Positions 22,908 through 27,804 of a stretch of 28,085 nt of DNA are shown here, in pieces (the stretch's first letter is position 1; every line of letters starts with the position of its first letter). Origin of the DNA: Solirubrobacteraceae bacterium (GTDB taxonomy: Bacteria > Actinomycetota > Thermoleophilia > Solirubrobacterales > Solirubrobacteraceae); assembly GCA_035942495.1 (NCBI GenBank), contig DASZDB010000250.1:1-28085 (forward strand), written 5' to 3'. Below the pieces are notes generated by a model. The model was not told where the DNA came from and searched no databases. It was given only the letters and a program-made list of their open reading frames with translations. Both the position numbers and the translations under genes were made by a program.

Positions 22908-24950
22908 ATGACTCTCGAGGCACATCGCCTCTCGCGCGGCGTCGGCGCATGCCTACTCGCGCTCGCTCTCATCATGCTCGCGGCGGTGCCTGCGGCACAC
23001 GCGGACACGATCTACCCGGACAACAAGATCACGGGTACATCCTTCGACTCCGGTCTCGACGGGTGGATCGAGTTCGACAACCACTGCGACCTCGTCACGC
23101 TCGGTGACACCGTGCTGCTCGATCTCGCCGCACCCGACCCGCTCTGCGACCCGCGGACCGATCATGCGGCCGGCATCGGTACACCGCCGGGATCGCTCGA
23201 GCAGCGCAGTGAGCAGGCCGCCTCCGCGTCCGTGCTCGGCAGCGCGATCGGCGTGATCCGAGGTCGCAGCACCGCCCTCTCGCCGGTCTTCACCGTTCCC
23301 GTCGGCGGGCCCGCGACGTTCACGGTCGACCGCCACTTCATGATCGACGCGCTGCTGCCGGTCGGCCTGGGCGCCGAGCCCGCCCGGATCGGCTACCAGT
23401 TCCTCCTCGTCGACCAGGCCGGCGGGACGCCACTCGTCCTCGACGGCGACACGATCGAGATCGATCGCGGCAGCACGTCGCCCGCTTCCCCGTTCACCGG
23501 GCACGGGCCCATCAGCCTGCCGCCCGGGAGCGTTCAGAGCGGTCACAGCTACCGCATTCAGCTGACGACCACCTTCCGGGCCAACCCGGCCGGCCTCGCC
23601 ACGGCGATCGCGGCCCTCTTCACCATGCGCGCTCAGTACGACAACGTCCGCCTGCGCGTGCAGGACGGGACGCCGACGTTCGGCCCGGCCACGGCGATCA
23701 CGGATCCCGCCACGAACATCACGGCGACGACGGCCACGCTGAACGGCCGGACGAACGCGCAGGGCCTGCCCTCGACGTACCGGTTCCGCTACGACGACGA
23801 CGCGGACTTCGCGGACGACGCCACCGACGCGACCGACGACATCGCGACGGATGCGTTCAACGCAGGATCGAGAACCGACGAGCAGCCGCGCTCGCGTGGC
23901 ATCAGCGGCCTGACCGCCTGCACGACGTACTACTTCCGGATCGAGGCACAGACGGTTGATTCGGACGGCCCCGCGGCGGGGGGCATCGGCGAGACGCTCT
24001 CCTTCCGCACGGATTGCGCGCCGACCGTCGAGACCCTCCCGGCGGTCGCCGGAGCGGAGTCGGCGGTGCTCAACAGCGCCATCAACCCCGAGGTCTTCAT
24101 GACGACGGGACCGCAGACGACATACGTCTACGAATACCGCGAGAAGGGCACGGAGCCCTGGCTGGTGTCGGCGGCCGGTGCGCCGATCTCCGGCGGCCGG
24201 CGCGTCGTGCAGCCCAACAGCGTCGTGATCTCGGGCCTCAAGAAGGACACGACGTACGAGGCGCGCGTCGCCGCGACGAACTATGTCGGGCCGACGACGG
24301 ACCCGACGCCCGTCGAGTTCACGACCCTCGCCGACGGCGAGCAGGGTCCGGCGGGCCCGACAGGTCCGGTAGGCCCCACAGGGCCGGGCGGGCCGGCCGG
24401 CCCGGCAGGTCCTCAGGGCGGGCAGGGTCCGGCGGGTGCCAACGGTGCCCCAGGGCCGGCGGGCCCCGCAGGTCCGGGAGGGCCTCCGGGCGCGCAGGGT
24501 CGGCCCGGTCCGGCCGGGACGTCGGGTTCGTCATCGACGAGGATCCTCGGTGAGAACGGTCGCATCGGAAGCGCGACCGGTCCCGTCGCGACGTGTGGTC
24601 GCATCACGATGAACTTCGCGAGCGGCATGCGGAGCCTCGGCCGCAGCCTCGCGAGCCGCTACGGCACCCGGACGGTGACGCGCGGCCGGATCGTGACGTG
24701 CGGCTCCAACCCGCGCCCGATCATCGGCGCGAGGATCGACGTGGTGCACGTGCTGCCGGGCAACAAGCAGCGCCGCAAGACCGGGCTGCGCTCGCGGGCC
24801 AACGGCCGGCTGACGCTGATCCTGCCGAACAACGTGCGGACGCGGACGATCCGCTACTCGTACCGGCCGGACCTGCGGTCGTCGCGCGTCACGTCGCGCG
24901 TGACGCTGCGCCTGACCGTGCGCAACCGCAGCGGTCGCGTCATGCGCTAG
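22908..24950 (+). CDS. Secreted modular protein: signal peptide, jelly-roll-like domain, two FN3-like domains, collagen-like Gly-X-Y stalk, Arg-rich C-terminal domain
   Basis: AHA-D cleavage site; FDSGLDGW...YDNVRL; ATLNG...[14 protein letters not shown] and [14 protein letters not shown]; 22 consecutive G-X-Y triplets. Confidence 0.88.
24336..24533 (+). repeat. Collagen-like (Gly-X-Y)22 repeat
   Basis: [66 protein letters not shown]. Confidence 0.95.
24549..24950 (+). repeat. Copy 1 of the duplicated Arg-rich C-terminal domain (copy 2 at 26203-26607)
   Basis: My manual alignment gives 107/134 identical residues; 24691-24828 vs 26348-26485 differ at 6 of 138 nt. Confidence 0.95.
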
Positions 24951-24971
24951 CGCTGCACACACCACCGCCTG

Positions 24972-24996
24972 CGGGCCCTCCCATCGGGAGGGCCCG
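24972..24996 (+). terminator. 11-bp perfect hairpin after the collagen-like gene
   Basis: CGGGCCCTCCC-atc-GGGAGGGCCCG, 21 nt after the stop; no U-tract. Confidence 0.7.
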
Positions 24997-25086
24997 TGGC
25001 CGTTGTGCGCACAGATGCGCAAGCTTTCGCCCGTCGCTGCGTTAGAGGTCTCACGGAGCATCGACCAGCAGGGAGAGAGGGAGTGC

Positions 25087-26607
25087 ATGCGCAACCATGT
25101 GATGAGTAGGGGACGGCTGTTTGCCGTCTGTGTCTTGGGTGCGCTTGCGGGCGTCGTCCCGACGGCGAGCGCGGACACTGCGTTGCCCGTCTGGACCTGC
25201 CGCGGCAGCGCGGGCTACATCGAGCTCAACCCGCTGCTGGATTCCCAGCGCATCGAGCCGGTGCTCGCCAACGGGCAACCCGATCGGCTGACCCCCGACC
25301 GCGAATTCTGCGCGAACGCAGACGCCGGCGTGCAGAACATCGCCCTCCCGCCGGACGAGGCTGCTCCGACGCTCTCGCTGGAGGCGGCCTCAGCCAGCAC
25401 CTCGATCACTCCGGCGATCGCGCCGGCACGCGAGCAGACCGCTGCGGCAGAGGGCGGCGTCGCCGAGACGGTGCGCGTCGAGATTCCCGGCTTGACGATC
25501 GACGCCGAGGCCGTCACGGCCCAGGCCACGGGGCGCTGTGTCAACGGCGCGCCCGAGCTGACCGGCTCGAGCAGCATCGTCTCGCTCATGGTCAACGACA
25601 CGGTCATCGACATCCCCCAGAACGGCGAGCCCGTCGACCTCGACCTCCTCCCCCTCGTCCGCATCCGGCTCAACCAGCAGGTGCCGGAGGGCACCGCGAC
25701 GAGCACCGACCAGGCGCTGACGCAGCGAGCGGTGCACATCGAGCTGCTGTCCGCTCCCGGCGGCGAGCCGGTCTCCAGGGTCGTCCTTGGCGAGGCGAAG
25801 GTCGACCGCCACGGCGCGGTCTGCGCGCCACCGGTCGTACCGGTCTGCCCGGAGGGCTTCGTCCCCCAGGCCGGGTCTGACCCGCTGGTGTGCGTGAAGA
25901 CCGTCACGGCACCGTGTCCGGCGGGCTCGACGCCAGACCCGGCGGCCGGCGGGGCGTGCATCATCATCCGCCAGGTCAACGCGCCGTGCCCAGCCGGCTC
26001 GACGGCGGATCCCGACAGGGCAGGCGCGTGCATCGTGCTCGTGCAGTCACCGCCCGCCAACTGCACCGGGGGATCGGTGCGCGATCCGGCGACGAACAAC
26101 TGCGTGCTCGTCCGCGACAGGCCCTGTCCCCCCGGGGCGACGCCTGATCCGAACACGCGGGTGTGCGTGGTGACGAGAGCGCCGACGACCGTCGTCGGCT
26201 CGGGTGAGAACGGGCGCATCGGAAGCCCGTCCGGCCCGGTGGCGACGTGCGGCCGGCTTCAGATGTTCTTCGTACGCGGGGGCTTCCGCAGCGTCGGACG
26301 CTCCCTCACGAGCCGCTTCGGCACCCGCACGGTCACGCGCGGACGGCTCGTGACGTGCGGCTCCAACCCGCGCCCGATCATCGGCGCCAGGGTCGACGTC
26401 GTGCACGTGCTGCCGGGCAACAAGCGGCGCCGCAAGACGGGGCTGCGCTCGCGGGCCAACGGCCGGCTCACGCTGATCCTGCCGATCGACCTGCGCAGCC
26501 GCCGCATCGAGTACGCGTACCGGCCGGACCTGCGCTCGACGCGCGTGACCTCGCGCGTGACGCTGCGCCTGACGGTGAAGAACCGCCGGGGCCGCACGCT
26601 GCGCTAG
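25087..26607 (+). CDS. Secreted modular protein: signal peptide, choice-of-anchor-P-like beta domain, five CPxG...C repeats, Arg-rich C-terminal domain
   Basis: GGGAG RBS before ATG 25087; signal ...VVPTASA-D; AEAVTAQATGRC...GSSSIVSLMVN...IRLNQQ...LTQRAVHIEL...VVLGEAK; Cys repeats. Confidence 0.85.
   Translation: MRNHVMSRGRLFAVCVLGALAGVVPTASADTALPVWTCRGSAGYIELNPLLDSQRIEPVLANGQPDRLTPDREFCANADAGVQNIALPPDEAAPTLSLEAASASTSITPAIAPAREQTAAAEGGVAETVRVEIPGLTIDAEAVTAQATGRCVNGAPELTGSSSIVSLMVNDTVIDIPQNGEPVDLDLLPLVRIRLNQQVPEGTATSTDQALTQRAVHIELLSAPGGEPVSRVVLGEAKVDRHGAVCAPPVVPVCPEGFVPQAGSDPLVCVKTVTAPCPAGSTPDPAAGGACIIIRQVNAPCPAGSTADPDRAGACIVLVQSPPANCTGGSVRDPATNNCVLVRDRPCPPGATPDPNTRVCVVTRAPTTVVGSGENGRIGSPSGPVATCGRLQMFFVRGGFRSVGRSLTSRFGTRTVTRGRLVTCGSNPRPIIGARVDVVHVLPGNKRRRKTGLRSRANGRLTLILPIDLRSRRIEYAYRPDLRSTRVTSRVTLRLTVKNRRGRTLR
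25846..26166 (+). repeat. Five tandem two-Cys repeats (CPxG-x-DP-x-C)
   Basis: CPEGFVPQAGSDPLVC, CPAGSTPDPAAGGAC, CPAGSTADPDRAGAC, CTGGSVRDPATNNC and CPPGATPDPNTRVC. Confidence 0.9.
26203..26607 (+). repeat. Copy 2 of the duplicated Arg-rich C-terminal domain
   Basis: [18 protein letters not shown]...[44 protein letters not shown]...[29 protein letters not shown]. Confidence 0.95.
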
Positions 26608-26626
26608 CCACGGCAACGTAAGGACG

Positions 26627-26660
26627 GACTGCGGGCTCTCCTACAGGAGGGCCCGCAGTC
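26627..26660. terminator. Probable bidirectional terminator hairpin overlapping the argD stop codon
   Basis: GACTGCGGGCTCTCCT-ac-AGGAGGGCCCGCAGTC (15/16 Watson-Crick plus one G-U on the plus strand), between convergent genes. Confidence 0.7.
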
Positions 26661-27804
26661 GTTGCAGGACGTCGTCGACGTGTTCGTCGCCGATCGTCAG
26701 CGGCGGCAGCAGGCGCAGCGTCGCGGGGCCGGTGGCGTTGACGACGAGGCGCTGGTCGAGCAGCGCGCGGCGCACGAGCTCGGGCGCGCCGCCGTCGGCG
26801 AAGTCGCAGGCCAGCATGAGGCCGCGGCCGCGCACGGCGGCCACGCCGGGCAGCGCCGCGAGGCCCTCGGCGAGGCGCTCTCCGAGTGCGCGCACGCGGG
26901 CCAGGAGCGCGGGATCCTCCACGATGTCGAGCACCGCGAGCGCCGCCGCGCAGGGCACGGGGCCGCCGGCGAAGGTCGAGCCGTGGTCGCCGGCCGCGAA
27001 CACGTCGGCGTAGCGCGGCGAGCAGATCAGCGCACCGATCGGCAGGCCGCCGCCGAGCGCCTTCGCCGTCGTCATGAGATCGGGCACGACGCCGGCGTCC
27101 TCGTAGGCCCACAGCGTGCCGGTGCGCCCGAGGCCGCACTGCACCTCGTCGAAGATCAGCGCCGCGCCGTGCTCGTCACACGCCGCGCGCGCGGCCTGCA
27201 GCAGCTCGTCGTCGAGCACCCAGACGCCGCTCTCGCCCTGCACCGGCTCGAGGATCACCGCGGCGGTGCCCGCGTCGACCGCGCCGGCCACCGCGCGGGC
27301 GTTGGGGGCGACCGAGACGAAGCCGGGAACCAGTGGCGCGAACGGCGCCTGCTTGGACTCCTGCGGCGTCGCCGAGAGCGAGCCGTACGTGCGCCCGTGA
27401 AAGCCGCGGTGGACGGAGACGATCGTGCCCTGCGGCTTCGCCTTGCGCGCGAGCTTGAGTGCGGCCTCGTTGGCCTCGGTGCCCGAGTTGGCGAAGTGCA
27501 CCTTGCCGCCGCCGCCCAGCGCCGACGCCGCCAGCCGCTCGGCGAGCCGGATGCCGGGCTCGCTGTAGAAGAGGTTGCCGACGTGGACGAGCCGCGCGGC
27601 CTGCTCCTGGATCGCCGCGACCACCGCCGGATGGGAATGGCCCAGCGACGTGACCGCCAACCCCGTCTGGAAGTCGAGGTACTCGATGCCGGCGTCGTCC
27701 CACAGCCGCGCGCCCTCGCCGCGCACGAACTGCACGGGCTGGCGCGCGTACGCGGGGACGACGTGGTCATGCTCGAGCGCCTGCAGCTCGCCGAGCGTCG
27801 TCAT
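26641..27804 (-). CDS. argD: Acetylornithine aminotransferase
   Basis: YARQPVQFVRGEG, LGHSHP, ANSGTEANEAALKLARK, FHGRT, EPVQGESG, FDEVQCG, AKALGGGLPIGA and HGSTFAG; ATGA overlap with argB. Confidence 0.95.
   Translation of the reverse strand: MTTLGELQALEHDHVVPAYARQPVQFVRGEGARLWDDAGIEYLDFQTGLAVTSLGHSHPAVVAAIQEQAARLVHVGNLFYSEPGIRLAERLAASALGGGGKVHFANSGTEANEAALKLARKAKPQGTIVSVHRGFHGRTYGSLSATPQESKQAPFAPLVPGFVSVAPNARAVAGAVDAGTAAVILEPVQGESGVWVLDDELLQAARAACDEHGAALIFDEVQCGLGRTGTLWAYEDAGVVPDLMTTAKALGGGLPIGALICSPRYADVFAAGDHGSTFAGGPVPCAAALAVLDIVEDPALLARVRALGERLAEGLAALPGVAAVRGRGLMLACDFADGGAPELVRRALLDQRLVVNATGPATLRLLPPLTIGDEHVDDVLQRLRALL

Follow-up and report, generated by a model that had tools for sequence, protein, structure and literature searches.

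Why should two neighbouring genes for unrelated secreted proteins end in the same strongly basic domain? The question is posed by gene A and gene B, which are arranged head to tail in a stretch of 28,085 nucleotides, below called the window. It is contig DASZDB010000250.1 of a Solirubrobacteraceae bacterium (assembly GCA_035942495.1), and we refer to it as contig C250 of G000, the genome under study (716 contigs, 3.37 Mb, 72% complete, 71-73% G+C). A sequence-only reading of the window had taken the shared C-terminus for an interchangeable anchoring, sorting or assembly module. We will show that the domain is, with high confidence, an uncatalogued immunoglobulin-like (Ig-like) beta-sandwich, and that gene A very probably received it from gene B in place of an end of its own. 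The role that we propose for it, an electrostatic attachment of the two proteins to the cell surface, is put forward more tentatively.

Two unrelated proteins with one common end

Both genes are on the plus strand. Gene A (22908-24950, an open reading frame of 680 residues) codes for a signal peptide (residues 1-32), an acidic head, two fibronectin type III (FN3)-like domains and a collagen-like stalk of 22 G-X-Y triplets (residues 477-542; 24336-24533). The stalk is followed by copy 1 of the C-terminal domain (24549-24947; 133 residues, net charge +26 or +27, two cysteines), which is delimited by BLASTP and the DNA alignment. Pfam finds fn3 in this protein with 29.6 bits and Collagen with 24.4 bits, the latter over residues 477-535.

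Gene B (25087-26607, an open reading frame of 506 residues from its first ATG) has the order signal peptide, acidic head, Cys-rich repeat stalk with CP.GS..DP...C units, and copy 2 of the domain (26203-26604; 134 residues, net charge about +28). Copy 2, identified by BLASTP, DNA alignment and charge, represents the domain that is resident in the gene B family. Head and Cys-rich stalk (25087-26202) have no match to any Pfam or NCBIfam family at E ≤ 1. Orthologues of the same architecture are present in five further genomes (G019, G009, G011, G010 and G016), and the gene B orthologues align from the start at 25087. The start of gene B itself is uncertain: a TTG at 25003 opens the frame, and the ATG at either 25087 or 25102 would give a normal signal peptide.

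Comparing the two proteins by BLASTP yields one significant match, between the C-termini (E 7e-68), all others having E ≥ 0.03. When the two end domains are aligned with MAFFT, 107 of the 134 columns are identical. Copy 1 contains 27 Arg and 2 Lys against 2 Asp and 1 Glu, together with its two cysteines, and in the best 138-nucleotide window, starting at 24691, the two copies differ at 6 positions. These figures reproduce those of the sequence-only reading, which had described the N-terminal and stalk parts as unrelated and the C-termini as identical at 107 of 134 positions.

That reading had also assigned Sec-type signals to both proteins and had seen no known anchor, and this stands as well. 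By eye, both signal peptides have the n-h-c organization and end in A-x-A ahead of DT, and neither translated protein contains an LPXTG motif, a C-terminal transmembrane segment or a lipobox. Pfam gives no match at E ≤ 1 in either protein to SLH, LysM, GW/SH3, CWB2, choline-binding or other wall-binding families.

In a genome of this composition it is important to ask whether the Arg-rich frame is the translated one. It is the real coding frame, since its G+C content at third codon positions is 0.94-0.95, the ratio of nonsynonymous to synonymous divergence (dN/dS) against orthologues is 0.3-0.5, and the AlphaFold2 (AF2) model of the domain reaches a mean predicted local distance difference test score (pLDDT) of 86.8.

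Replacement of the gene A end

The head and FN3 region of gene A has orthologues in 41 of the 54 genomes of the genus. In all 11 orthologues inspected, the head, two FN3 domains and the collagen stalk are followed by a different conserved end domain of about 125 residues (L025:6110-6550 and L029-L038; alignment A3), which has two cysteines in CR..AVRTCSG and a DANNNRQN motif. A profile made from A3 detects this alternative domain in 39 of the 54 genomes, once per gene A orthologue. Subtracting its carriers from those of gene A leaves exactly two genomes, G000 and G022, and both of them have the B-type domain. Elsewhere in the assembled part of G000, which is 72% complete, the alternative domain is not found. 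One unpublished genome, G012, is counted as one genome in the genus tallies (domain matches, gene A head and alternative domain) and also supplies one sequence (L020, of the type C described below) to the domain tree; the conclusions are independent of it.

The alternative domain has no Pfam match. Its model is a beta-sandwich with one helix (pLDDT 86.8), different from the B-type sandwich, and its best structural match, to chaperone-usher chaperones with Z 8.8, is at background level. Homology between the alternative and the B-type domain was considered and rejected, with an hhalign probability of 0.1%.

Gene order and phylogeny add to these counts. The window has gene A and gene B flanked by the genes for argininosuccinate synthase (argG) and acetylornithine aminotransferase (argD), both on the minus strand, gene B being convergent with the latter. 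In both G019 and G009, argG is followed by a gene A that ends in the alternative domain and then by a gene B with the B-type end; in G019, whose flank was inspected, the next gene is argD. In G010, gene B directly follows argG. The domain tree places both gene A copies inside the B-type clade with 100/100 support, the clade being internally unresolved, and the branches of the window copies measure 0.18 for A and 0.021 for B. Because the A copies nest in the B clade, 39 of the 41 gene A orthologues have the alternative domain, and G019 and G009 show the corresponding synteny, we are confident that gene A's own end was replaced by the B-type domain, and that the direction of transfer was from B to A.

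As to the extent of the transfer, the local DNA homology begins exactly at 24549 and 26203, five codons downstream of where the G-X-Y run of gene A ends, and extends about 55 nucleotides beyond both stop codons, where it spans a GC-rich hairpin. The hairpin behind copy 1 lies at 24961-25005 on the plus strand and lacks a U tract (folding energy −40.7 kcal mol−1, z −4.3). The homologous one behind copy 2, at 26621-26664 on the same strand, likewise has no U tract and lies between gene B and the aminotransferase gene (−37.5 kcal mol−1, z −6.0). Both are delimited by the DNA alignment, and a scan for consensus terminators gives no canonical match at either of them; the copy 1 hairpin is probably a terminator and was copied along with the domain. 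Judged from these limits, the copied stretch ran from just past the collagen stalk through the 3′ hairpin. In the lineage of G000 and G022, the segment consisting of B-type domain and 3′ hairpin of the adjacent gene B very probably displaced the end of gene A, either by non-allelic recombination or by duplication.

The swap is old, since the two window copies are as diverged from one another as orthologues of different species: their synonymous divergence (dS) is 0.31, compared to 0.34-0.36 between them and the orthologues. The near-identical core, with its 6 differences in 138 nucleotides, might seem to speak for a recent exchange. It is, however, no evidence of one: comparisons between species give 87-98% identity for this stretch, and its third-position identity is equal within and between genomes. 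Recent gene conversion between the window copies is ruled out by the dS values and by this conservation of the core.

The second genome with a B-type end on gene A has a different arrangement. In G022 (L024, G022:C21, 6916-9013), gene A is joined to a B-like domain that is 86% identical to the gene B copy of the window and 72% to its gene A copy, and there is no gene B between argG and argD. We infer that this is what a crossover between direct repeats would leave. The locus could thus be the crossover product of two direct domain repeats, but also an assembly error or a pseudogene. An apparent +1 frameshift is seen within the G-X-Y repeats of this gene A.

Whatever its route, the natural replacement demonstrates that the domain is interchangeable, as had been supposed from the window's sequence.

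Fold, family and distribution of the domain

Neither Pfam nor NCBIfam matches the two window copies at E ≤ 1, which answers a question that the sequence-only reading had left open, namely whether the domain is already catalogued. The AF2 model, calculated with a 15-sequence alignment (A2), is all-beta with nine strands and a predicted template modelling score of 0.80, in keeping with the strand pattern seen earlier. When the model is compared with the PDB by Foldseek, only weak generic matches are obtained, to Ig V domains and the C-terminal domain of Nir2, with template modelling (TM) scores of about 0.5. Among the AFDB clusters, the top two are close but unnamed counterparts with 77% and 65% identity, presumably members of the same family, and the next ranks are Ig-like, Big-1 and macroglobulin domains with TM scores of about 0.6. 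VIA-align places macroglobulin domains of C5, C3 and alpha-2-macroglobulin first (Z 9.5-10.2), followed by invasin and intimin Big_1 domains (Z 9-9.6). As these matches do not rise far above the background of Ig domains, which at rank 50 still has Z 8.4, only the fold class can be assigned.

The neighbours in the ESM Atlas belong to the TTR-52, Big_3_5, CarboxypepD_reg and macroglobulin (MG) families. Sequence profiles lead to the same group when distant members are considered. Four of these (P0120, P0114, P0171 and P0147) match CarboxypepD_reg (PF13620) with 18-30.5 bits, exactly under the profile match of our domain, and P0120 additionally matches Big_1 and MG2; all these matches are sub-threshold. 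The gathering cut-off of PF13620, 32.3 bits, is not reached by any member tested, and P0001, P0002 and the isolated domain do not match this model at E ≤ 1. Together with the fold searches, the distant matches fit the earlier guess of a divergent transthyretin- or carboxypeptidase-regulatory-like sandwich.

With CarboxypepD_reg (transthyretin-like clan), Big_1 (PF02369) and MG2/MG4 the domain thus shares an all-beta sandwich of similar size. It differs from them in its net charge of about +24 to +28, in the strictly C-terminal position of its close members, and in an extra N-terminal strand region of about 35 residues. The latter holds the two cysteines, which covary: in an alignment of 125 domains, both are present in 46 and absent from 78, and a single domain has only one. 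This pattern points to a disulfide, and with it to an extracytoplasmic location. Considering both fold and sequence, we regard it as well supported that the domain is a divergent, uncatalogued beta-sandwich of the Ig-like kind that includes macroglobulin, Big_1 and CarboxypepD_reg domains, and that it constitutes a family of its own.

A profile search of 1.84 billion cluster representatives finds 186 proteins at E ≤ 1e-3, of which 101 also pass 1e-10 and 42 pass 1e-30. In the strong matches the tail behind the domain is 0-17 residues long, apart from a few cases that resemble artefacts of gene calling. In the weaker, distant ones it is internal and one further domain of 85-99 residues follows. 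Clustering of the N-terminal parts gives three classes of passengers, i.e. the gene B type (39 proteins), the gene A type (2) and type C (62), which has a motif similar to ADSYLVTSCHDP in its N-terminal part. In the gene B family and in type C, families of Sec-secreted Solirubrobacteraceae proteins, the domain is the usual C-terminal end. Carriers of types B and C have no collagen. A third and distant paralogue is encoded in G000 itself (L003, G000:C503, 728-2458, minus strand). It has 576 residues, 31% identity (E 1e-5) and a type C head, and its domain is internal, followed by an Arg-rich domain of about 95 residues that appears beta-rich by eye.

In taxonomic terms the domain is confined and patchy. 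The named database matches are Solirubrobacteraceae metagenome bins. Within the genus, the domain is detected in 20 of the 24 other genomes, mostly as a single strong match, and a genome has one to three copies; at the level of the family, the 1e-10 threshold is passed in 34 of 200 sampled genomes and in 14 of 51 genera. No match is found in five sister families, represented by 16 genomes. The sequence-only reading had named as possible support that the domain be always terminal, on many secreted proteins with varied N-termini. Of this, the terminal position holds for the close members and the varied N-termini amount to three classes, but the carriers are few and the distant members have the domain inside the chain.

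These numbers bear directly on one alternative, in which the domain is a sorting or secretion signal for a dedicated machine, possibly cleaved off, in the manner of the C-terminal domain (CTD) of the type IX secretion system (T9SS) or of PEP-CTERM and exosortase. The sequence-only reading had named both systems, and this part of it finds no support. There is a likeness to the T9SS CTD (Por_Secre_tail), also a small C-terminal beta-sandwich that is common to unrelated passengers: the domain has a comparable size and, in the close family, is strictly C-terminal on three unrelated passengers. However, no NCBIfam sorting-domain model matches at E ≤ 1, the Por_Secre_tail model included, and a genome has one to three carriers, usually one, instead of dozens. 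The host is an actinobacterium with sortases, and no partner gene came to light: genes A and B are flanked by genes of arginine biosynthesis, and the one pair of type C loci compared, those of G018 and G023, has no common neighbour. The internal position in distant relatives, ahead of a domain of 85-99 residues, also speaks against a signal. A dedicated sorting system is unlikely because of the low copy number, the 186 representatives in all, the patchy occurrence in one family and the lack of a shared neighbour in the compared pair, and we give this alternative very little credence. The distribution is that of a domain of a few orthologous families and not that of a sorting signal with its own machine.

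A second alternative is that the domain serves oligomerisation, e.g. as a trimerisation or nucleation module for the collagen stalk, which would permit mixed A/B oligomers. Bacterial collagens need an adjacent trimerisation domain (PMC8968730), and in gene A the domain comes directly after the 22 G-X-Y triplets, having replaced another domain in that place. On the other hand, the main carriers, types B and C, are without collagen, the nearest folds are usually monomeric beads of multidomain proteins, and a net charge of +27 per chain would be repulsive in a homotrimer unless neutralised by a polyanion. A three-copy complex prediction gave neither support for a homotrimer nor evidence against one and was not used. 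The trimerisation role suggested for the domain in the sequence-only reading has gained no support here, and we consider oligomerisation improbable.

Charge and a proposed attachment to the cell surface

The domain is extremely cationic. Net values of +27 (gene A) and +28 (gene B), with an isoelectric point (pI) of 12, stand on bodies of −25 and −17, each with pI 4.4. Arg makes up 20-22% of the domain compared to 5.4-5.5% of the bodies, 20 alignment columns are at least 80% basic, with Lys in place of Arg in some relatives, and for terminal copies from the whole family the median net charge is +24. The alternative domain that was replaced in gene A has +19 to +30. Since this unrelated domain is equally charged, the feature that gene A keeps at its C-terminus is a strongly cationic beta module and not one fold.

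It could be argued that the charge is a by-product of the 71-73% G+C, which favours Arg codons, and that the domain is a structural spacer, neutral in itself and retained through common descent. The G+C content is indeed very high, and Arg-rich frames abound in the genome. Yet the bodies of the very same genes are acidic and poor in Arg, the basic columns are conserved with Lys substituting for Arg, the unrelated domain is as highly charged, and the dN/dS of 0.3-0.5 is likewise at odds with a neutral spacer. This explanation is accordingly scarcely credible to us.

We propose instead that the acidic head and stalk would be kept at the cell surface by the cationic C-terminal module, which would bind an anionic polymer of the envelope non-covalently and largely electrostatically. 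If what counts is a cationic C-terminal beta module and not a particular fold, this would explain the exchangeability. In the collagen 'lollipop' proteins of the Scl type, the head is distal and the C-terminus is on the side of the wall (PMC8968730). Gene A resembles Scl1 and Scl2 in its order of head, collagen stalk and C-terminal region. It differs from them in lacking LPXTG and in having as its C-terminus a folded, cationic beta-sandwich that is exchanged within the genus; the NCBIfam models SclB, SclA and Lcl match only the collagen part of gene A, far below their cut-offs.

Cationic wall binders are also known among Gram-positive bacteria, namely the GW modules of InlB and Ami of Listeria and the teichoic-acid-binding basic C-terminal region of Lactobacillus S-layer proteins. 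As in these, the module here is basic and C-terminal, LPXTG is absent, and the acidic functional part is at the opposite end. In contrast to them, it has no sequence relation to these modules according to Pfam and belongs to another fold class, and a teichoic acid polymerase is not general in the genus.

Attachment is the most economical reading in view of the charge, the cleaved Sec signal, the absence of a canonical anchor, the head-stalk layout and the wall-side C-terminus of the Scl proteins. As an assignment by analogy it must still be called tentative, plausible but short of an even chance. When the sandwich restricted to this lineage, the swap from B to A and the electrostatic anchoring are taken together as a single account, we incline slightly in its favour.

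Several points weigh against the attachment. G000 encodes a TagB/TagF-type CDP-glycerol glycerophosphotransferase (PF04464, E 3e-98; G000:C317:6067-7146, minus strand), but a polymerase of this type was not found in G019, G022 and G023 and is weak in G013. For this reason poly(glycerol phosphate) is unlikely to be the general ligand; the capacity for wall teichoic acid seems, from these gene contents, to vary within the genus. Sortase genes are present in G000, so that the canonical anchoring route is available and yet unused by the proteins of genes A and B. The long branch of the A copy (0.18 compared to 0.021) could reflect relaxed constraint after the swap, and gene A of G022 is frameshifted in its collagen repeats.

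Finally, it is equally conceivable that the domain forms the distal end of released proteins and there binds a substrate. In this alternative the proteins are released or loosely held, and the domain would bind environmental polyanions (acidic polysaccharides, humic matter, clay surfaces, extracellular DNA) and not the cell's own wall. Neither protein has a canonical anchor at either end, an extreme and conserved positive charge would suit any polyanion, and sandwiches of the MG and Big_1 type are frequent in adhesins. Known stalked surface proteins of Gram-positive bacteria, however, have a variable distal head and a wall-proximal C-terminus (PMC8968730), and in the present case it is the heads that are diverse and family-specific while the C-terminal module is exchangeable. 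We regard a distal role as unlikely, although it has more to recommend it than the alternatives discussed above.

The attachment proposed here may be thought of more broadly. Interchangeable hyper-cationic C-terminal sandwiches, from at least two unrelated families, might act as electrostatic display anchors of the Solirubrobacteraceae, distinct from sortase/LPXTG, SLH, LysM and GW systems, and the swap in gene A would then be evolution's own demonstration of a modular anchor; in this general form the idea is doubtful. About a dozen further open reading frames of G000 begin like a signal peptide, continue with an acidic body and end in 130 strongly basic residues (net +17 to +31) that look beta-rich by eye (on contigs C47, C121, C99, C283, C222, C197, C427, C41, C569, C323 and C9). 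This list comes from a crude scan filtered by third-position G+C, contaminated by the shadow frames of a high-GC genome, and may contain false frames. It suggests that an acidic body with a basic beta end is a general layout of secreted proteins in G000, and under the broad reading it would make such anchoring a general strategy of the lineage.

Thermoleophilia, the Solirubrobacteraceae among them, are abundant in soil. In the literature on Solirubrobacter surface proteins and on C-terminal domains of actinobacterial collagen-like proteins we found nothing specific on surface display. What is new here is a domain family absent from the catalogues, for which clear boundaries, a disulfide, the fold class and the distribution are now defined. 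New is also a clean natural replacement of a C-terminal module between neighbouring genes, with 39 of 41 orthologues in the one state and 2 of 41 in the other. The swap predicts that the end of gene A depends on charge and not on fold. Should the domain serve as an anchor, it would offer a compact display tag for Gram-positive hosts of high G+C; should it not, it is an ordinary lineage-specific Ig-like domain.

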